Shown here: positions 8,006 through 39,458 of the stretch, one piece after another
Layout: the number at the start of each line of letters is the position of its first letter
Numbering within the stretch: position 1 is the stretch's first letter
Source: Escherichia phage JM10
Sequence record: PP400777
Strand: one strand, 5' to 3'
Length of the DNA stretch: 64,000 nt
Position numbers and translations under genes: made by a program
Notes under the pieces: generated by a model
What the model was told of the DNA's origin: nothing
Seen by the model: only the letters and a program-made list of their open reading frames with translations
Databases searched by the model: none

Positions 8006-8184
8006 GGCTTAATTTCCTTCGCAATTGAACAGAAGATACCACGGTCACAAAGCATTTCACCAATTTCTGGATATTTGATTGAACGGTACCAAACATCCAG
8101 GCTTGAAACTCTGGTTATCTGTACTGCATTACCGTTGACAGAATAGTACTGGTCAACCTTAATTTCTTTATCTTCAATTGTCAT
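8002..8184 (-). CDS. hypothetical small protein
   Basis: Start at the internal ATG (MTIEDKEIKV) with a strong GAGGAAA RBS; a promoter-like GTTTAC-17-TAAGAT lies upstream at about 8196-8246. Confidence 0.45.
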   Translation of the reverse strand: MTIEDKEIKVDQYYSVNGNAVQITRVSSLDVWYRSIKYPEIGEMLCDRGIFCSIAKEIKP

Positions 8185-8349
8185 TTTATTTTCCTCTATA
8201 GTAGATGGTTTAATCTTAACACATCTATTGAGGATGTAAACTGTTTTATGAAAATATTTTTGTTTTGAGAGGGGCACAAGGAGATAGTGAAGTGAAGATT
8301 CCAATGGATTATATTAGAAATGAGATAAAGAAGACCAGGCGGCACCTGG

Positions 8350-8658
8350 TCAATCTTCTATGATATCAGAGTCATATCCTAATGAAATCAAGGACTTTTT
8401 AAACTCTGCAATATTCTTTTGTTTCTTATCATTTAAAAATATGACAGGATAACGAATATTAAGTGAAGTGAATCCTGCACGTTTAGCAAGAGATACGATT
8501 AAAGGACGGTCATATTCAATCTTACCATTATTAGTGAGGACTTTATAAAATGTATAAGGAGCATTGAGTTCCTTTAAAAGTTTTGTAACAGTATAACATC
8601 CTGGACAACGTCCAACTTCTTCAGGGATGCCATAAATTTCAATCTTGTTGTGTTCCAC
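8350..8658 (-). CDS. nrdH: glutaredoxin-like protein NrdH
   Basis: 102 aa with CPGC active-site-like motif; lies upstream of nrdG/nrdD as in T4. Confidence 0.75.
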   Translation of the reverse strand: MEHNKIEIYGIPEEVGRCPGCYTVTKLLKELNAPYTFYKVLTNNGKIEYDRPLIVSLAKRAGFTSLNIRYPVIFLNDKKQKNIAEFKKSLISLGYDSDIIED

Positions 8659-8660
8659 AA

Positions 8661-8983: not shown

Positions 8984-9454
8984 TTAATCATGTTTCCACA
9001 CCCCATCAGTATTTGACCAAAGTCGCTGATTATCTGATCCTCGCCACAGCTTTTTAGTCGGAAGATTTTTCTCATACTTCCCATCAATAATAACATCAAC
9101 ATATTTAAGCATTTCTAGTTGTTTAATATCTTCAAACTTATATCCTGTCCACAACCAAATGCTTTTATTTGGATAAAGATTTTTAATAGTTTGAACCACA
9201 GAGTGAATCACATCTCTGTTATCAGGATAGAGAGGGTCACCTCCGGTTATAGTCAATCCTTCTATATAATCATTATTCAAACATTCAATTAATTGTTCTA
9301 GTGTTTCACCAGTGAATGGAATACCATTTCTAGCATTCCATGTTGATTTATTATAACACCCTTCGCATTTATGCAAACAACCTGTGACGAAAAGAACGAC
9401 CCTGCAACCAGGGCCATTCACAAAATCGCAAGGATAAAATCTATCATAATTCAT
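8984..9454 (-). CDS. nrdG: anaerobic ribonucleotide reductase activating protein NrdG (radical SAM)
   Basis: 156 aa; radical-SAM cysteine cluster CLHKCEGCYN. Confidence 0.9.
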   Translation of the reverse strand: MNYDRFYPCDFVNGPGCRVVLFVTGCLHKCEGCYNKSTWNARNGIPFTGETLEQLIECLNNDYIEGLTITGGDPLYPDNRDVIHSVVQTIKNLYPNKSIWLWTGYKFEDIKQLEMLKYVDVIIDGKYEKNLPTKKLWRGSDNQRLWSNTDGVWKHD

Positions 9455-10730
9455 TGGTGTTTAACCCTATGCATGATTTCTTTATTTTTACCAAGATTAA
9501 ATCCGCGTTCGTTCGGATTTCCCAAATAACCGCATGTTCTTCTTATGGTGTTCATCTTTTTAGGATCACTTTCTCCACAAACTGAACAAACAAATCCGTT
9601 TTCAGTAGGAGTCATTTCATGGGTACTTCCACATGTAAAACATTTATCTACTGGCATATTAACACCAAAATAATCTAAATGTTGTGCAGCATAATCCCAG
9701 ACAGCCTCAAGTCCCTTTAAATTGTTTTTCATATCTGGAAGTTCAACATAAGAAATGTGACCACCTGTCGCAATGAAATGATATGGCGCTTCACGAGAAA
9801 TCTTTTCAAACGGAGTAATATTTTCTTCTACTGAAACATGGAAACTGTTAGTGTACCAGCCTTTATCGGTGACATCCTTTACACTTCCATATTTTTCTGT
9901 ATCAAGTTTACAGAAGCGATAACAAAGGTTTTCAGCAGGAGTAGAATATAAACTAAAAGCAAATCCAGTTCTTTCAGACCACTGTTTAAGATGAGCATTC
10001 ATTTTAGTTAAAATTTCTTGTCCAATATCACGACCGACAAGAATATTCAATTCGTGAATACCGATGTATCCCAAAGACACTGAACTTCTACCGTTTTTAA
10101 ATAACTCAATTATGTCGTCATCAGGTTTAAGACGAACCCCGAATGCACCTTCTTGGTAAAGAATAGGAGCTACAGTTGCTTTAACACCCTTTAAAGAACT
10201 AATTCTACACATCAAGGCTTCAAAACACAGATCCATTCGTTCATTAAATAGCTCAACAAATTTCTGTTCATTGAACTGTGTTCCAATATAAGAATCTAAC
10301 GCAATACGAGGAAGATTCAATGTTACAACACCAAGATTATTACGTCCGTCAAGAATTTCATTTCCAGTTGAATCTTTCCATACACTCAAGAAACTACGAC
10401 AGCCCATTGGAGAAACTGGAACTGAAGAACCAGTAATAGCTTTATTATTCTTAGCTGAAATAATATCAGGATACATCCTTTTGCTTGCGCACTCTAAAGC
10501 AAGTTGCTTAATGTCGTAATTCGGATCGTCTTTATAAAGATTAACGCCTTCTTCAACGAACATAACAAGCTTAGGGAAAATAGGAGTTATCCCATCACGT
10601 CCAAGACCTTTAATACGATTTTTCAGAATTGCTTTCTGAATCATTCGTTCGGTCCAGTCAGTTCCCGTACCAAATGTAATTGTTACAAAAGGAGTCTGTC
10701 CGTTTGAACTGAAAAGTGTATTTACTTCAT
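9451..10730 (-). CDS. nrdD: anaerobic ribonucleoside-triphosphate reductase NrdD, exon 2 (C-terminal part)
   Basis: Ends with glycyl-radical motif RRTCGYLG; joined to exon 1 (11776..12313) it gives a 605-aa product reading …DAFQAYE-Y-EVNTLFSSNGQ…. Confidence 0.85.
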
Positions 10731-11775
10731 CATTATATTCAGCATGAGTCGCAAATTCATGCCCGTTTATATGAAACAACAAAATTTGGATAGTCCATAG
10801 ATATGCAACGTTCTTTTATAGTGCTAGGATGAAAATTTAGCGCTTTAGCTGCTTCTATATAAGACGTATACTTAATACCGTCAACAACCACATATTCAGG
10901 AACTTTATGAATAGTAGTCTTAATACTCAAAACAAGAGGATGAGTTTCGACTTCACTTTCAGTGCAATTTAAATATTCCGCTGCTTTTTTAAAACTTCTA
11001 AAAGTTTTATTTTTAAGCTTTATCGATACTTGTTTTTTACTTTTTCGACTATTGATATTATTTTGCACATGTTCCTTAGATCTTCCGTTTTTAGCATAAT
11101 ATTCAGCTACAGAAGATTTTATATTGTTTTTATGAGATTCGGATAACACTTTACCCTTATGAGCATCTCTTAATTTTTGAATATGTTCTTCAGTATCCGG
11201 ATGCTTATAAAACTTTTTACCGCCTATGGATTTATTTAAACATTTTTTGCTATAAAAATATTTACGTATGACCTCTTCTTCATGTTTTAATGCATCTTTA
11301 TAACTATCAAATGTTTTTAAAATTATCCATTTAGTAGGTGTATCAGTTTTTAAGCGTTCATTTATATACTTAGATGACGTTGTGTAAGTTTTCCAGTTTG
11401 TGGGCTTGTTTTTAATTGTTCTAAATTTTTTATAACCGATATAAATGTCGCCATTAGAAAACTTAACTAAGTATGTAAATGCGTCTTTATCTTTTATTTT
11501 AGTACAACGTCTTTTTATCCATTTCATTGTTTCACCTCGTATTCATAAGATAATCTTATTTATACAAGATGACTGCTGCATGTCGCCATGCAGATTAGAC
11601 TATATCTTCATCTTTCGATGCCGGCCGTTTCGAATAGCATTAGCTTCTATTCTACACCGCTACATTCATCACGGTTAGTCGTTAGGCATTTAGTTCAAAA
11701 GAACATTTAGCACGGGATTGTCTACTAGAGAGGTTCCCCGTTTAGACCGGTTTTACATGAGCCTGAATTAAATTA
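10731..11775 (-). mobile_element. group I self-splicing intron in nrdD carrying a homing endonuclease ORF
   Basis: Conserved group I core on the minus strand (TCTAAACGGGGAACCTCTCTAGTAGACAATCCCGTGCTAAAT, AAATGCCTAACGACTA); P1 pairing of exon UAUGAGU with IGS GCUCAUG gives U-G at the 5' splice site; intron ends …GAATATAATG. Confidence 0.8.
10757..11527 (-). CDS. intron-encoded GIY-YIG homing endonuclease (I-TevII-like)
   Basis: 256 aa; GIY-YIG-like N-terminus (YLVKFSNGDIYIGY), NUMOD3-like basic repeats, I-TevI-like C-terminal DNA-binding module. Confidence 0.8.
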   Translation of the reverse strand: MKWIKRRCTKIKDKDAFTYLVKFSNGDIYIGYKKFRTIKNKPTNWKTYTTSSKYINERLKTDTPTKWIILKTFDSYKDALKHEEEVIRKYFYSKKCLNKSIGGKKFYKHPDTEEHIQKLRDAHKGKVLSESHKNNIKSSVAEYYAKNGRSKEHVQNNINSRKSKKQVSIKLKNKTFRSFKKAAEYLNCTESEVETHPLVLSIKTTIHKVPEYVVVDGIKYTSYIEAAKALNFHPSTIKERCISMDYPNFVVSYKRA

Positions 11776-12313
11776 ACTCATACGCCTGGAATGCATCGTA
11801 TACATCTTTTTCTGTTTTAGATTGAGCATAATTCAACGCATCAGCGATTTGCCATTTTTCTGCATCCTCAATATGTTTTGCATAGGTGCGTTTAACATAA
11901 GGAGAAAGAACTTTATCTACATTCGCAAATGTAGTTCCGCCATACTGGTGTGAAGCAACTTGTGCGGTAATTTGTGCCATAATTGCAGTAGCAACACCAA
12001 TAGATTTAGGCGTTTCAATTTGAGCATTGCCTAATTTAAATCCATTCTCAAGCATCCCCTTTAAATCGACTAAACAGCAATTGGTAAACGGAAGAGCAGG
12101 AGAATAATCAATATCATGCATGTGAATGATTCCACTTTCATGCGCATTCATAATAAAAGACGGGACCATATTTTTGGCAATGTGCTTAGACACAATACCA
12201 GCCATAAGGTCCCGTTGAGTTGGAAAAACACGAGAATCTTTATTAGCATTCTCGTTTAAAAGATCTTTATTAGTTTTATGAATCAGTCCTTCAATTTCTT
12301 TTTCAATTTTCAT
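11776..12313 (-). CDS. nrdD: anaerobic ribonucleoside-triphosphate reductase NrdD, exon 1 (N-terminal part)
   Basis: N-terminal 179 codons; the in-frame stop at 11768 lies in the intron just past the 5' splice site. Confidence 0.85.
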
Positions 12314-13121: not shown

Positions 13122-13457
13122 TTAACCGCGGAGTTTATTGAGCTCTTCATAATCAATCCAGGATTCTAGTCCGGATGGCAAAGCTGATTCAATGTTCCAC
13201 AGAAGCTCTTCGATGGCTTGTAGGCGATTATATTCTTCAACAGTAATAGTAACCATTGTTTCAGGCTTTTTAACCAACATGTCATTCATCAGAATATACA
13301 GGTCTTCACAAACAGCCGGGTCGTCCCATGTCCATATTTCAGCATCTCGAACCAATGAAGTCGGAATCGAATTTAAAACTTCAAGCTTAGTAGGAGCGTC
13401 AGGGCCAAGAAGAGTTGCTACAAATTTATATGCTTTGGCGAAATCAATATTGTTCAT
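13122..13457 (-). CDS. hypothetical protein
   Basis: 111-aa ORF; start overlaps the nrdC stop. Confidence 0.5.
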   Translation of the reverse strand: MNNIDFAKAYKFVATLLGPDAPTKLEVLNSIPTSLVRDAEIWTWDDPAVCEDLYILMNDMLVKKPETMVTITVEEYNRLQAIEELLWNIESALPSGLESWIDYEELNKLRG

Positions 13458-13717
13458 TTAAAATATTCTCGCAGTTGGTCAAATCCACCAATATGACTTC
13501 CGTCAGGAGCAAACACTTGAGGCATAGTCAATCCGACTTGTGATTCACGCCCAAGCTTAACCAGAAGCTCAGCAATTTTCTCATCATCGAACACACCTTT
13601 TTCTGGCATAACATTAATGAATTCGAACGGCTGTTTCTTAACAGCCAGCAATCGTTTCGCATTATCACAATAAATGCATTTATGAATAGTAGAGTCATAA
13701 CCGTACACTTTAAACAT
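13454..13717 (-). CDS. nrdC: thioredoxin/glutaredoxin NrdC
   Basis: 87 aa from MFKVYGYD…; CIYC active site. Confidence 0.85.
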   Translation of the reverse strand: MFKVYGYDSTIHKCIYCDNAKRLLAVKKQPFEFINVMPEKGVFDDEKIAELLVKLGRESQVGLTMPQVFAPDGSHIGGFDQLREYFK

Positions 13718-14123
13718 TATTTTTCCTTTCATCGATTAAATATGCAACACCAAATACAATACATGTAATAAAACCTGTGATACCGATAGAGAACATCAAC
13801 ACTGTACCAAAGAACCAAATCAGGTTATCTTTAGTAGTTTGTTTGATATCCATCTCACGAATTTCTATAGCTATCGTATCACCTTTATTCAGAAGCGTAT
13901 AAAATGATGGAGATACATGCCTGTCAAAAACTCGTCCTTGTTCATCTTTATAAACTGCAATAAATTCTAATTTAGAATATTTTCCTGTAGATTGTCCTGA
14001 GATTAGCTCTACTACCTCCACAGGAATTACTTTAGTTTCCATATAAGTATTCTGGCTGTTCCAAATGAATGGAATAATGGCAAAAACTAAAGCTGCGATA
14101 AAACAACGAAGGCTATATCTCAT
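13710..14123 (-). CDS. membrane protein
   Basis: 137 aa with N-terminal and C-terminal hydrophobic segments. Confidence 0.5.
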   Translation of the reverse strand: MRYSLRCFIAALVFAIIPFIWNSQNTYMETKVIPVEVVELISGQSTGKYSKLEFIAVYKDEQGRVFDRHVSPSFYTLLNKGDTIAIEIREMDIKQTTKDNLIWFFGTVLMFSIGITGFITCIVFGVAYLIDERKNNV

Positions 14124-17505: not shown

Positions 17506-18507
17506 TTATTTCAGTAAAGTTACTTCAGAGATTTCCTCCCAACCATCTTTATCAGTTGAAATAAAATCTGCTACATAAAGAGCCGTACGTAATGATACAT
17601 TGCGAAGACGAGATACGTTAGCCTTCATCCAGGACAATGCTTTATACGTTTCTGCATCCGTCAGACCACGTTTCTGCATCATGTCAGTAGATAATATTAC
17701 ATCTTCAACTCGAACCATAATCTCTTCATTAGAGTGTACTCCAAGGTCCAAATACACTGAACGAGATACTAAAGCTTGAAGGTGTGGAGCAAGTTTAGAA
17801 CCGCGTTCTAACTCTTTATCGATATCAACGTTTGTAATGAAAACGATAGTACCTTCAAACTCAAATTCTTTATCAATACCCTTATCATCGAGATAAGATG
17901 ACGCAGTGCTCCAACAAACTTTGCGTTTATCTCCGGTATCTAATGCTGCTTTAAGAAGGTTCAAGATGTCCATATCTGAGAATACGTCAACGTCGTCGAT
18001 TAAGAGAACGCTGTCTGCATCACGGTTGAGCCAAAGTTGTTCGTAAAGGCCGATACCAGAGATTTTACCATTAATGCTTTTGTATTTGATGAAACCATTA
18101 TCATTAGCATTATTAAGCGCTTTATCCAGAGAATACGTCTTACCAATACCGGCTGCACCTGAAATAATGAGTGAACGAATTTTGCCATCAATAATGCCAT
18201 TCGTCATCATGTTCATTACTTTAAAGCGTTTGTTGATACGAGTTTTCATATCTTCAGTGCTTTCAACAACTGCAACCGGTGACGTCTCAACTCCTTCCAT
18301 TACGATGTCTGATTTGAAGACCCATACTCCACGTTCAGAACCATCAATCATAACGAAAATTTTACCATCACCTAAGTGGGAACATTCAGGATTAAGCTTT
18401 GCCGGGAACCAGGTCTTTGTGGCGACATAAGAACCAGAGATTTCGTTATTACGGTAGATACCTTTTTTGATTTGAACGTTGAACATTTTATTCTCCAATT
18501 TACTCAT
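17506..18507 (-). CDS. P-loop NTPase (AAA-like ATPase)
   Basis: 333 aa; Walker A GAAGIGKT and Walker B LLIDDVD. Confidence 0.65.
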   Translation of the reverse strand: MSKLENKMFNVQIKKGIYRNNEISGSYVATKTWFPAKLNPECSHLGDGKIFVMIDGSERGVWVFKSDIVMEGVETSPVAVVESTEDMKTRINKRFKVMNMMTNGIIDGKIRSLIISGAAGIGKTYSLDKALNNANDNGFIKYKSINGKISGIGLYEQLWLNRDADSVLLIDDVDVFSDMDILNLLKAALDTGDKRKVCWSTASSYLDDKGIDKEFEFEGTIVFITNVDIDKELERGSKLAPHLQALVSRSVYLDLGVHSNEEIMVRVEDVILSTDMMQKRGLTDAETYKALSWMKANVSRLRNVSLRTALYVADFISTDKDGWEEISEVTLLK

Positions 18508-18882: not shown

Positions 18883-19164
18883 TTACTTATCGCACTTAGC
18901 AACATAATTAGGCATATCACAGAATACGGAGCGAGTAACTACTCGACCCTTTGACCATGCTTCAGTTGCTTGTCCGGCCGTGCTATTAATATAGCTTGAT
19001 TTAATGTTCTCAATACCCTGAGAATGTGATGCATTTACCGAACCATTAGAAGGCCCAGAAGTCTGGTTACCACCAGCTCCTGTACTACCGTTGGCTGCAC
19101 CCGTGGTAGCACCAACAGAGAATGCCATCATTACTGCGAATAAACCAATTACTAATTTTTTCAT
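18883..19164 (-). CDS. secreted Gly/Ser/Asn-rich protein (signal peptide)
   Basis: 93 aa; N-terminal MKKLVIGLFAVMMAFSVGA, two C-terminal Cys; a TATAAATA late-promoter match lies 33 nt upstream. Confidence 0.55.
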   Translation of the reverse strand: MKKLVIGLFAVMMAFSVGATTGAANGSTGAGGNQTSGPSNGSVNASHSQGIENIKSSYINSTAGQATEAWSKGRVVTRSVFCDMPNYVAKCDK

Positions 19165-19195: not shown

Positions 19196-20182
19196 TTATT
19201 TATAGTAAGAATTATGATTTTCGAGATAGACTTGCTCAAGGAAATCATCCCAGAAACTCATATCTACTTTTTGTTGCATACCATTCTTGGCAGCTTGTTC
19301 CGATGCTTGTTCAACTTGGTCAACGATATCTTCTAGGAATTCTTGTACAGTTTTAAACGTATGTTTACCAAGCTTAACATCGAGAATAAATGGAGCATCC
19401 TGAAGTGGGTAAACCAGGTCGCCGGTTTTGTAAATTTCCAATAATTGAAGTCCACCACGACATGCATGACTCAATGCTTTCCAGTCAATACCTTCGTTGG
19501 CTTCAGCCTTACGAGCACGTTCGCCATAGTTCTCTTCCAGTTTAACCAGGATGGCATTGAACTCTTTATTGGTTAACGTATCTTGGAATTTACGGTCTAA
19601 CAGATTATAGAATGTTTGCTTACCTGTTTTCTCGTTTTCGGTTTCAACCCACGAAGCAAATTCACCTACAGGCAGAACATTCTTCATATGTGATAAACGA
19701 ATTACTGCACCATTATCAAAGTATTGTCCCCATTCATTAGAACGTTTAAGGGCTTGACGAAGAACAGCCAGTCGAGAACCCTTGACACCGTATTTAGAAG
19801 CTTGCTTACGGACATACCCTAAATAAGATTTCATGTTAGTGGTATAGAAACGAGACCTGTTATCTTGAATATACTTCCATACATCAGGCAAATCAGATTT
19901 AACTACTAGACTTTGTGGAGTGTGAAGCATATCTAATGCGACGGTTTCACCATCCGCAGCTAGTTTAAAGAAATATTTGAGACTATATAACTCATGGTCC
20001 ACGTCGTCTTTTGTGTTCTTAGAAGATGTGTTATTCGTGTTCTTGCTCATGTGTTCTTTAACGTTACCGGACAAGATATCACGAGCATGAGGGACATAAA
20101 TTTCTTTAAAATCGACGTCAGATTCAGGAGTAGACGTTCCATAAAGGTGGCTACCAAAGTAAGCCTTAACAATCGTTTTCAT
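19196..20182 (-). CDS. nucleotidyltransferase-fold protein (Pol-beta superfamily-like)
   Basis: 328 aa; N-terminal FGSHLYGTSTPESDVDF fits the G[SG]x(9-13)DxD minimal NTase signature. Confidence 0.6.
   Translation of the reverse strand: MKTIVKAYFGSHLYGTSTPESDVDFKEIYVPHARDILSGNVKEHMSKNTNNTSSKNTKDDVDHELYSLKYFFKLAADGETVALDMLHTPQSLVVKSDLPDVWKYIQDNRSRFYTTNMKSYLGYVRKQASKYGVKGSRLAVLRQALKRSNEWGQYFDNGAVIRLSHMKNVLPVGEFASWVETENEKTGKQTFYNLLDRKFQDTLTNKEFNAILVKLEENYGERARKAEANEGIDWKALSHACRGGLQLLEIYKTGDLVYPLQDAPFILDVKLGKHTFKTVQEFLEDIVDQVEQASEQAAKNGMQQKVDMSFWDDFLEQVYLENHNSYYK
19197..19204 (-). promoter_or_regulatory. late promoter candidate (TATAAATA)
   Basis: Exact TATAAATA on the minus strand, inside the 3' end of the upstream ORF. 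Confidence 0.45.
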
Positions 20183-20580
20183 TATTTAGCCTTATATTCA
20201 AGAGTAGGACAGACTTTTTCTTTACGAGCTTTAAGGTATTCACCTATTAATGATTTCTTACGTTCAATAGGCTCAAGTCCATTTTTAATTCGTTCTTGGT
20301 TTTGCGCAATGAGCTCAATTTCTTTATAATATTTTCTGTCGTTATATTTGTCTAACAACCAAGACGGACCAATTACTAACCCGGTAGCAATAAAATCCAT
20401 GACTGCTACAATTAAAATGCCTAAACCAATTGAAGCCGGAACTAATGTCCATAGACTGCTAAAAACAAAGAATTTAGTTAAAATTTCCTGGCAAATGATT
20501 GTGACTGCTGCTAAAATCACAAATCCAATAATTGAAGCAGCCAATACCGGGATTAACGTTTTCCAAAAATAAGCACACAA
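20182..20580 (-). CDS. membrane protein
   Basis: 132 aa with about three hydrophobic helices. Confidence 0.5.
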   Translation of the reverse strand: MCAYFWKTLIPVLAASIIGFVILAAVTIICQEILTKFFVFSSLWTLVPASIGLGILIVAVMDFIATGLVIGPSWLLDKYNDRKYYKEIELIAQNQERIKNGLEPIERKKSLIGEYLKARKEKVCPTLEYKAK

Positions 20581-20664: not shown

Positions 20665-21207
20665 TTATTTCAAAGTTGGGATAATAGAATCGAGATAAGC
20701 TTTAAGAGCAACTGCCTCATCTTTGTCTAATGTAATGATATGTTGACGAAGGTCATCAATTTGGCGAATAACTACGACATCACCATCTTCATAAGAAGGA
20801 TTAACGCCTAGGACTGTTGTATAGTCAGGGCGGTCCTGATTTGTAATAAAAGCATTACGGCATTTAGCCCATTGAAGTTTGGCCTTTTTGGCTGTTTCAG
20901 ATTCCATGAATTCTTTCACCTTAGTGACAAATGTTTTCCAATTATTAATAGAAAAACATTCATCTTCGGTTTCGATATTAACCCCACTATAAAGTCCGTG
21001 ATAAAAACGAACTTGAAGGTCTTCATCAATGTTAATTACAGATGCATGACCCGGTGGATTGAGTTTCAAAATCTTGTCTAGTTCCATAGGAAGAATAGTA
21101 ACAACATCATCTTCTTGCGTCAGAACGTACGCATAACCACGTTTTTCGATACATAAATCACCAAACAACTCAGTCGTTTCAATTACAGTTTTCATATTAT
21201 TCACCAA
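20665..21207 (-). CDS. hypothetical protein
   Basis: 180-aa ORF. Confidence 0.55.
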   Translation of the reverse strand: MVNNMKTVIETTELFGDLCIEKRGYAYVLTQEDDVVTILPMELDKILKLNPPGHASVINIDEDLQVRFYHGLYSGVNIETEDECFSINNWKTFVTKVKEFMESETAKKAKLQWAKCRNAFITNQDRPDYTTVLGVNPSYEDGDVVVIRQIDDLRQHIITLDKDEAVALKAYLDSIIPTLK

Positions 21208-22513: not shown

Positions 22514-23095
22514 TTATAACAACCCTGTCAAATCATTCCAATGCTTCCGGCATAATGACACGTATCTATCGGTATCACCAATTTCAATTTGACTGCCATC
22601 TGTAATTGGAAGTCCGTCTTCCGTGACTCTAGCTACCATTGTGGCCTTTTTACCGCAATGACAGACACCTTTAAGTTCAACAAGCTTATCGGCAATAGCC
22701 ATTAATGCTTGAGAACCTTCAAATAGATTACCTTTAAAATCTGTTCGTAGTCCATATGCCATTACCGGCACATTGTATACGTCAACAATACGACTAAGTT
22801 GATACACCTTTTCAGTAGTTAAGAACTGAGCTTCGTCAACAAATACACAATGAATATCCTTTTGTGCTGCAGCCCATTTATAGAATTCAAAGATATCCAT
22901 GTCTTTTGTAATTATATTGGCATCCTGACGAATACCAATACGAGAGACTATTTCACCTTTTGAATCACGAGTATCAATAGCCGGTTTAAGAACTAATACA
23001 CCCATGCCACGTTCTTTATAGTTATGTGCGGCAGTAAGTAATGAAGCAGACTTACCGGCGTTCATAGCGGCATATGTAAAAATTAAACTAGCCAT
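22514..23095 (-). CDS. tk: thymidine kinase
   Basis: 193 aa; P-loop AAMNAGKS and C-terminal zinc cysteines. Confidence 0.9.
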   Translation of the reverse strand: MASLIFTYAAMNAGKSASLLTAAHNYKERGMGVLVLKPAIDTRDSKGEIVSRIGIRQDANIITKDMDIFEFYKWAAAQKDIHCVFVDEAQFLTTEKVYQLSRIVDVYNVPVMAYGLRTDFKGNLFEGSQALMAIADKLVELKGVCHCGKKATMVARVTEDGLPITDGSQIEIGDTDRYVSLCRKHWNDLTGLL

Positions 23096-31008: not shown

Positions 31009-31965
31009 TTATTTGAAAGGTTTTACAATATTGAAATTTTGTTTGAAACGTTTGACGTAATCATCATGTCCTAAGCTTTGGTACATACTTACTACTTTGC
31101 TGTAGTTTTCCCAGGCATACTCACGGAACCAACCGGAGGTTATGCTTGTACAGACTTTTTCCAATGCCATCATGAAACTGGCTTCAGGGTTAATTTTAAA
31201 GTCATTAGGAATCTGAGAACGTTCTAATGCTAGTACACATGATTCTTCATATACACCGGCCAATTTGACCATTTCTGGTAACGATTCGAACTTCTCGCGT
31301 GAGGTCATTACTTCAGAACCATCTTTCATGTAAAATGTATAAGCCGGACGGTCTGTTAGTGCAATGGCTTCGTGAATAGTATCGTGGTCATATGTATAGA
31401 TGTCATCTTTAAAGAACGCACTTTTAGAAGTGTCAAGAACCGGGTGAGCATAGTTCAAGGTTTCTTTCTGGCGTTTCAGCATAATTTCGGTAAGTTCATC
31501 GTTCAGTGTAACACCTTTACCACGAAGATACTGAATATGGTTCATAGTCTTTAAAAAGAATGGATTATTTTTCTTGAAACGATGAGACATCTTAATTGCA
31601 AGACATATCTCAGGAGTTGCCCAGTAAAACCCGTTCAAACGGTCTTTAGTCAAATTTTTCTTGGCGTATTTTAAAAGGTCATAAGAAGACGTGAAATCTT
31701 CAGGAGTGAGTTCACCGACTAATTCACGGACATTAGTGATTGCCGGAACAATATATGCTTCAAAATGAGTTTCGCGTCCATTATGGAAGCATTTGAAAAC
31801 TTGGACATCAGGGTTATCTTGGTGAACATATACACCCATCATTTGATTTTTGAATGCATTCCAAGAACATTGGTCCGCAATAAAGTCCCAATCACTATTT
31901 TTAATAGCGCTAGAATCAATAAGACCGTGATAGTGAAGTGCACGAGAACCAATAACCAACATCAT
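31009..31965 (-). CDS. hypothetical protein (weak nucleotidyltransferase-like N-terminus)
   Basis: 318 aa; N-terminal IGSRALHYHG…NSDWDF weakly resembles a GS…DxD motif. Confidence 0.55.
   Translation of the reverse strand: MMLVIGSRALHYHGLIDSSAIKNSDWDFIADQCSWNAFKNQMMGVYVHQDNPDVQVFKCFHNGRETHFEAYIVPAITNVRELVGELTPEDFTSSYDLLKYAKKNLTKDRLNGFYWATPEICLAIKMSHRFKKNNPFFLKTMNHIQYLRGKGVTLNDELTEIMLKRQKETLNYAHPVLDTSKSAFFKDDIYTYDHDTIHEAIALTDRPAYTFYMKDGSEVMTSREKFESLPEMVKLAGVYEESCVLALERSQIPNDFKINPEASFMMALEKVCTSITSGWFREYAWENYSKVVSMYQSLGHDDYVKRFKQNFNIVKPFK

Positions 31966-38772: not shown

Positions 38773-39458
<686 letters not shown>

Follow-up and report, generated by a model that had tools for sequence, protein, structure and literature searches.

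The nrdC.11 gene of Escherichia phage JM10 encodes an RlaP-family nucleotidyltransferase with a possible role in RNA 3'-end restoration

Introduction

What is the substrate of the 328-residue nucleotidyltransferase (NTase) that Escherichia phage JM10 encodes among its early genes, and which process does it serve? We addressed this question in a window of 64,000 nucleotides, the whole stretch of record PP400777 that was analysed, to which coordinates refer unless a related locus is named. A sequence-only reading of the window had seen an NTase signature near the N-terminus of the protein, considered its function to be unknown, and suggested that it could modify nucleotides or RNA, or interfere with nucleotide-signalling defences of the host.

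The repair of PrrC-cut tRNA-Lys by the Pnkp and Rnl1 enzymes of T4 is the founding example of RNA repair. RlaP, a family to which we return below, was reportedly named by Burroughs and Aravind in 2016. Its members were predicted to replace, ahead of ligation, nucleotides that damaged RNA has lost (PMC7824862, PMC12776372). In a December 2025 preprint, the RlaP enzymes of Pseudomonas fluorescens and P. aeruginosa are described as adding one or two NMPs to an RNA 3'-OH, with a preference for Mn2+ and for the 5'-half of a nicked-tRNA mimic; they take all NTPs and dATP with little NTP specificity, and do not act on DNA or protein (PMC12776372). The same enzymes partly restore aminoacylation of a tRNA lacking one anticodon-loop nucleotide, and RlaP was proposed to be an antidote to nucleotide-excising nucleases such as RloC (PMC12776372), whose excision of a nucleotide has been proposed to defeat phage tRNA repair (PMC3458546).

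Results

The NTase gene of JM10 is the ortholog of T4 nrdC.11

The ORF list contains a complete coding sequence of 328 codons plus stop, with an ATG start, that fills the interval 19196..20182 exactly. The ORF is therefore real, and its strand, about which the sequence-only reading was silent, is minus; the corresponding plus-strand frame is interrupted by many stops. The protein begins with MKTIVKAYFGSHLYGTSTPESDVDFKEIYV, and the peptide quoted in the earlier reading corresponds to residues 9-30. The gene had been assigned to the nrdC-tk block, and this location is correct, with nrdC (glutaredoxin) at 13454..13732 and tk (thymidine kinase) at 22514..23095, both on the minus strand.

At the DNA level, identity to the Mosigvirus phages (Straboviridae) AlbertHofmann, mobillu, a20 and APCEc01 is 98-98.6%, and GenBank holds proteins of approximately 100% identity, some of them annotated 'putative nucleotidyltransferase'. 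Using tblastn, we found the protein in 1566 phage records, mostly T4-like. Amino acid identity is approximately 78% in T4-type phages, including 78% over residues 1-328 for the T2 entry 'nrdC.11: nucleotidyltransferase', approximately 65% in T4-likes of Klebsiella and Enterobacter, approximately 50% in those of Aeromonas and Acinetobacter, and approximately 30% in non-T4 phages such as Sinorhizobium phage phiN3. The T4/T2 NrdC.11 protein (38.9 kDa), encoded between nrdC and mobD, belongs to the same leftward early/middle unit and size class as the JM10 protein. Given 78% identity over the full length and the conserved position between nrdC and tk, the JM10 gene is the ortholog of T4/T2 nrdC.11, a gene carried by more than 1500 sequenced T4-like phages.

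'Unknown function' is therefore out of date for this gene, since its T4 counterpart is named an RlaP in the 2025 preprint, where T4 NrdC.11 is placed in PF10127, in SSN cluster 5, apart from the assayed enzymes in cluster 1a (PMC12776372). As this amounts to a published family assignment, the JM10 gene is an annotated, Pfam-classified gene that we have re-identified, already known in kind, and not a discovery. What the present analysis adds is that its clade departs from the characterised RlaPs beyond the catalytic domain, that genes of its type pair with canonical RlaP in bacterial RNA-repair loci, and that it is mislabelled in many database records. In numerous GenBank and UniProt entries the NTase is named 'thioredoxin', apparently from the locus name nrdC.11; the actual glutaredoxin/thioredoxin NrdC is the separate product of 13454-13732 on the minus strand.

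Upstream of the NTase gene lies an ORF for a 132-aa membrane protein (20182-20580, minus strand), whose stop overlaps the NTase ATG in a shared TAATG. This overlap indicates that the two genes are probably co-transcribed within a leftward early/middle unit, and they are possibly also translationally coupled. A sigma-70 and terminator scan around the gene returned 17 promoter-like sites where shuffled sequences gave an expectation of 19.5, and thus no excess; MotA-box-like sites are enriched in the window, with none directly upstream of the NTase gene. Since there is no outstanding promoter-like site, and no MotA-box-like site directly upstream, the gene looks like one cistron of a long leftward early/middle unit, and we do not claim a private promoter for it. 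The sole terminator-like hairpin in the neighbourhood (18867-18851, minus strand) lies 3' of the next small ORF.

The neighbours of the gene are the membrane protein, a small secreted protein, a P-loop ATPase and a y05I-like factor. The small protein, encoded directly downstream of the NTase (18883-19164, minus strand), has 93 residues, a signal-peptide-like N-terminus and a Gly/Ser/Asn-rich region; a YbgS-like match to it is weak and below threshold. The P-loop ATPase (17506-18507, minus strand; 333 aa) is nrdC.10-like, belongs to PHROG 1250 ('unknown function') and has weak matches to AAA_22, nSTAND3 and HTH_37. In 33 of 78 viral loci, a homolog of this ATPase is found one to four genes downstream of nrdC.11, through either functional linkage or plain synteny. 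The y05I-like putative transcription factor (20665-21207, minus strand; PF24449/PF24448) represents a conserved T4-group family. At the start of the NTase gene, where JM10 has the overlapping membrane-protein ORF, T4-type phages instead have the homing endonuclease gene mobD. The slot adjoining nrdC.11 is a recurrent homing-endonuclease site among relatives, as seen with a20_210, mobD of RB5 and RB59, and gp246 of phiN3 (19235-20017 in locus L002 and 8033-8659 in the phiN3 locus, L166); in the window this slot contains no homing endonuclease and is occupied by the 132-aa membrane-protein ORF only.

NrdC.11 has an intact Pol-beta NTase domain and an additional helical domain

The sole Pfam match of the protein is to PF10127 (RlaP, 'RNA repair pathway DNA polymerase beta family'), which scores 50.2 bits where the cut-off is 23 (E=3.7e-13). 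The match spans residues 6-136 only, corresponding to profile positions 23-144 of 249, and the same partial pattern is found in the homologs from phiN3 and Roseobacter phage DSS3P8. PHROG 388 ('nucleotidyltransferase') matches over the full length (E=2.8e-125). Searches of NCBIfam and PADLOC with the protein gave no matches, Pfam assigned the C-terminal 196 aa on their own to no family, and searches of PDB sequences with the protein and with an 89-sequence profile gave nothing relevant.

Searched exhaustively with HMMER, 1.84 billion cluster representatives (50% identity) yielded 3306 relatives at E<=1e-3, 746 of these at E<=1e-30. In an alignment of 89 representatives (33-52% identity), G10, S11, S21, D22, D24, D62, Y131, K235, R242 and G272 are invariant in 89/89, and D60, D84 and H239 nearly so; a second alignment agrees with this pattern. 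The G[SG]...DxD signature recognised in the sequence-only reading is thus genuine and not a chance match, as G10-S11 and D22-x-D24 are kept in all homologs examined in both alignments. The translation-checked codons of G10-S11, the G[SG] motif of the Pol-beta NTase fold, lie at 20150..20155, and those of D22-V23-D24, the metal-binding DxD at the start of a predicted strand (residues 23-30), at 20111..20119; the codon of D62, the third carboxylate, which falls in a strand predicted by AF2 at residues 61-67, is at 19997..19999 (all minus strand). By the pattern of the superfamily, D22, D24 and D62 would be the catalytic residues.

An AF2 model built on the 89-sequence alignment is confident, with a mean pLDDT of 88.7 and a pTM of 0.74. 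Its beta-alpha-beta core occupies residues 1-130 with pLDDT above 90, G10-S11 preceding a short helix, and this segment is delimited as the N-terminal NTase catalytic domain (19793..20182) by Pfam, hhalign and AF2 together. The middle region, residues 131-204 (19571..19792), is specific to the clade and consists of a long helix (135-154) and a three-stranded beta element (176-200), modelled at a lower pLDDT of 62-89. Residues 205-328 (19199..19570) form a C-terminal domain in which AF2 predicts helices over 205-327, ending in a terminal helix at 308-327, and which carries the invariant motif D233-W-K235-x3-H239-A-x-R242 (19457-19486) as well as K270/G272; all of these segments are on the minus strand. 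This domain is probably an NTP/RNA-binding domain. When the model was compared with the PDB using Foldseek, only weak matches to NTase folds were returned, the best at E=3.8e-3.

PF10127, PHROG 388 and a motif kept in homologs bear out the NTase fold proposed for the protein: the Pfam profile search places it in a Pol-beta NTase family and not in a non-NTase fold, the predicted structure has the expected core, and the additional C-terminal domain suspected from its length is present as the helical domain beyond that core. Fold, family, intact catalytic motif and orthology to T4 NrdC.11 are direct observations.

The more specific identities fared differently. CD-NTases, MNT antitoxins and aminoglycoside NTases had all been mentioned as relatives, and none of these is supported by Pfam or PADLOC matches. 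For CD-NTase/SMODS proteins there is no Pfam match at E<=0.01, no PADLOC match and no effector-like neighbour; for the antitoxin of MNT-HEPN pairs there is no such match in either resource; and for the aminoglycoside nucleotidyltransferases ANT(4')/KNTase there is no sequence-family match in Pfam. ANT(4') and the two-domain minimal NTases (PDB 3c18, LinB and AAD(9)) are 9-11% identical to the phage protein. [quoted passage not shown]

The NrdC.11 type diverges from canonical RlaP beyond the catalytic domain

Canonical RlaP, as exemplified by the P. fluorescens and P. aeruginosa proteins of the RtcB-RlaP-RtcA operon and by the phiKZ gp237-type proteins of jumbo phages, has approximately 255 aa, whereas proteins of the NrdC.11 type have approximately 310-340 aa. 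The canonical form matches the whole Pfam model (E=1.1e-77, profile positions 1-248 of 249), whereas the NrdC.11 type matches its first half only. When the two types were compared using hhalign, the alignment had a probability of 93% (E=2.5e-7) and was significant over residues 1-130 only, with G10, S11, D22, D24 and D62 of NrdC.11 on G30, S31, D42, D44 and D75 of canonical RlaP. The two types have in common the GS, the DxD, the third D (D62/D75) and an acidic residue (D84/E97), as well as, by prediction, an overall plan in which a helical domain follows the NTase domain; RNA-repair genes are neighbours of members of both types. In the crystal structure of P. fluorescens RlaP, the last helix of the C-terminal helical domain folds back against the NTase domain.

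Beyond this, the NrdC.11 type has an extra helix and beta element of approximately 75 aa (residues 131-204) without counterpart in canonical RlaP, and when the C-terminal halves were compared using hhalign, the alignment did not reach significance (1.7% probability). In a forced C-terminal alignment, itself non-significant, K235-x3-H239-A-x-R242 falls on the canonical invariant K152-x3-Y156-A-x-R159. We infer that the NrdC.11 type is a divergent paralog of RlaP with an insert of approximately 75 aa between the NTase and helical domains. Phages divide between the types by lineage, canonical RlaP being found in 81 records, mostly of jumbo phages (phiKZ-like and others), and the NrdC.11 type in the 1566, mostly T4-like, records described above; no T4-like phage occurs among the canonical-RlaP phage matches listed. 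Of the two PF10127 types, T4-like phages appear to have retained the long form alone.

Genes of the NrdC.11 type are linked to RNA-repair genes in bacteria and in some phages

A scan of one genome per bacterial and archaeal species yielded 80 loci from bacteria or metagenome-assembled genomes with full-length genes of the NrdC.11 type (34-52% identity over residues 1 to ~315-328), whose neighbours we identified by our own ORF calling followed by HMMs built from seeds in the same 80 loci. The commonest neighbour is a protein of approximately 255 aa with a match along the entire Pfam RlaP model. In 24/80 loci the NrdC.11-type gene has a canonical RlaP gene within 6 kb; of the 73 loci that extend far enough downstream, 19 have canonical RlaP directly after the NrdC.11-type gene, and the two genes often overlap by 4 nt (for example L111:1555-7743 and L150:5920-7784, among loci L086-L165). 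RtcB was found in 9 loci, Ro60/TROVE in 5, RtcA in 2 and HD in 2-3, such that 32/80 loci have at least one RNA-repair marker (RlaP, RtcB, Ro60, RtcA or HD). On a Nitrosospira contig (L111) the order is Ro60-RtcB-RtcA-NrdC.11type-RlaP. In a Pfam census of 124 same-strand neighbours, RlaP ranks first, followed by HD, RTC, Ro60 and AAA_33, amid unrelated families.

As both types are kept in tandem in bacteria, they are probably not redundant, and they are possibly interacting paralogs of PF10127. The occurrence of tandem, overlapping genes in RtcB/RtcA/Ro60 loci suggests that the pair forms a heterodimer or divides its labour, for example between different RNA ends or nucleotides. On this account the NrdC.11 type may be a functionally distinct sister of canonical RlaP, and not another copy of it, a reading that we consider less likely than not.

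In JM10 itself, no RNA ligase, pnk or tRNA gene was found in the neighbourhood of nrdC.11. The near-identical phage a20 encodes Rnl1, Rnl2 and Pnkp approximately 52-91 kb from nrdC.11 around the circular genome, and since both ligases seal a 3'-OH to a 5'-P, they are compatible with an enzyme that leaves a 3'-OH product. The 78 viral loci show mostly T4 synteny or heterogeneous neighbours (primase-helicase, PolA, UvrD and NAMPT/PRPP synthetase), with no general adjacency to ligases. In phiN3 (L166, 495-12101), the gene order is metallophosphoesterase, PF09414 RNA ligase with OB fold, NrdC.11 homolog (annotated NrdC.11 in its record), homing endonuclease, NUDIX and Rnl1-type PF09511 RNA ligase, such that the homolog lies between two ligase genes. 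The DSS3P8 homolog (L168, 4090-14742) lies inside an array of more than 20 tRNA genes, and in two metagenomic phage contigs the gene next to the homolog encodes a Metallophos or an HD_4 protein. Linkage of clade members to RNA ligases, to RtcB/RtcA/Ro60 and to tRNA genes is therefore observed directly.

Discussion

The reading that we prefer, with a probability of roughly 0.55, is that NrdC.11-type RlaP restores nucleotides at RNA 3'-ends, acting after Pnkp and before Rnl1 or Rnl2, and so rescues tRNAs that have lost a nucleotide to a host nuclease. The sequence-only reading had left open whether nucleotides or RNA would be modified, and membership in the RlaP family together with the RNA-repair neighbourhoods of relatives favours RNA. 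By transfer from the biochemistry of the Pseudomonas enzymes, the substrate would be an RNA 3'-end, and NrdC.11 would be a template-independent, two-metal (probably Mn2+) enzyme that uses NTPs to add one or two NMPs to damaged RNA at its 3'-OH. A host anticodon nuclease would cut a tRNA and excise a nucleotide, which in the case of RloC is the wobble base; phage Pnkp would heal the ends to 3'-OH and 5'-P; NrdC.11 would put the missing nucleotide or nucleotides back; and Rnl1 or Rnl2 would seal the break. Cooperation with Pnkp and the ligases, and a role in counter-defence, are likewise what we would expect of such an enzyme.

Several observations weigh against this proposal. All biochemistry of the family comes from the canonical short clade, which is homologous to NrdC.11 over the N-terminal ~130 aa only, and the presence of both types side by side in bacteria argues that they are not functionally equivalent. 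The JM10 gene is not beside an RNA ligase, pnk or tRNA gene, and most phage neighbourhoods are heterogeneous. We know of no RloC-type nuclease that restricts these phages. On laboratory hosts, T4 can dispense with nrdC.11-mobD.3 (PMC9825161), which leaves no phenotype to which a role could be anchored; this tolerance fits an accessory, host-dependent role.

The protein could add nucleotides to RNA 3'-ends for another purpose, such as the restoration of damaged tRNA 3'-CCA ends, in which case NrdC.11 would back up the host CCA-adding enzyme when toxins attack the acceptor end, or the tailing of host or phage RNAs to alter their stability. The evidence from PF10127, the invariant motif and the AF2 model applies equally to this alternative, the position of the DSS3P8 homolog among tRNA genes and not ligase genes and the missing ligase adjacency in T4-like phages speak for it, and the Pseudomonas enzymes, with their little NTP specificity, also label full-length tRNAs and rRNAs (PMC12776372). 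[quoted passage not shown] The acceptor might instead be a protein or a small molecule, for instance a host HEPN-type RNase or other defence protein that would be neutralised by AMPylation. MNT antitoxins, DrrA/GlnE and kanamycin NTase are all nucleotidylylating enzymes with a similar architecture of NTase plus helical domain. The substrates of kanamycin-type NTases are antibiotics, whereas nothing in the phage gene points to small-molecule substrates, and we regard nucleotidylylation of this kind as more improbable still.

Lowest in our estimation, and very improbable, is that the protein produces or imitates a nucleotide or oligonucleotide signal, like HalB or a CD-NTase, and so jams a host signalling defence such as Hailong or CBASS. 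The protein agrees with this idea at the level of the fold only: the ~127-residue catalytic core alone aligns with the oligodeoxyadenylate synthase HalB of Hailong, which is a host defence component with the partner channel HalA, whereas JM10 has no such partner or PADLOC signature. Pfam and PADLOC give the signalling role no support, and the phage already carries the anti-CBASS nuclease Acb1 (38773-39228, minus strand; PF23474, E=1.3e-58). The known counter of this phage to nucleotide-signalling defence is therefore not the NTase, and the action against such defences that had been put forward earlier finds nothing in its favour, with Acb1 encoded elsewhere in the window.

If, on the less likely reading of a functionally distinct sister of canonical RlaP, the long form alone restores excised anticodon-loop nucleotides, then it would be a missing third enzyme of the T4 Pnkp-Rnl1 tRNA repair pathway, and with NrdC.11 phages would counter nucleases such as RloC that excise the wobble base. 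By encoding an enzyme that restores nucleotides, a phage would close the loop between RloC and Pnkp/Rnl1 repair.

Other features of the window

A protein of 318 aa with DUF7277/DUF7275 (31009-31965, minus strand) belongs to a conserved T4-group family. The nrdD gene (9451-12313, minus strand) is interrupted, with exon 1 at 11768-12313 (NRDD profile positions 1-141) and exon 2 at 9451-10782. Within it lie a group I intron core (11576-11811, minus strand; Rfam RF00028, 70.9 bits), which was found in a local scan only and missed by the whole-window gathering scan, and an ORF for a GIY-YIG/NUMOD1 homing endonuclease (10757-11527, minus strand). In the sister phage a20, nrdD is uninterrupted and 1818 bp long.
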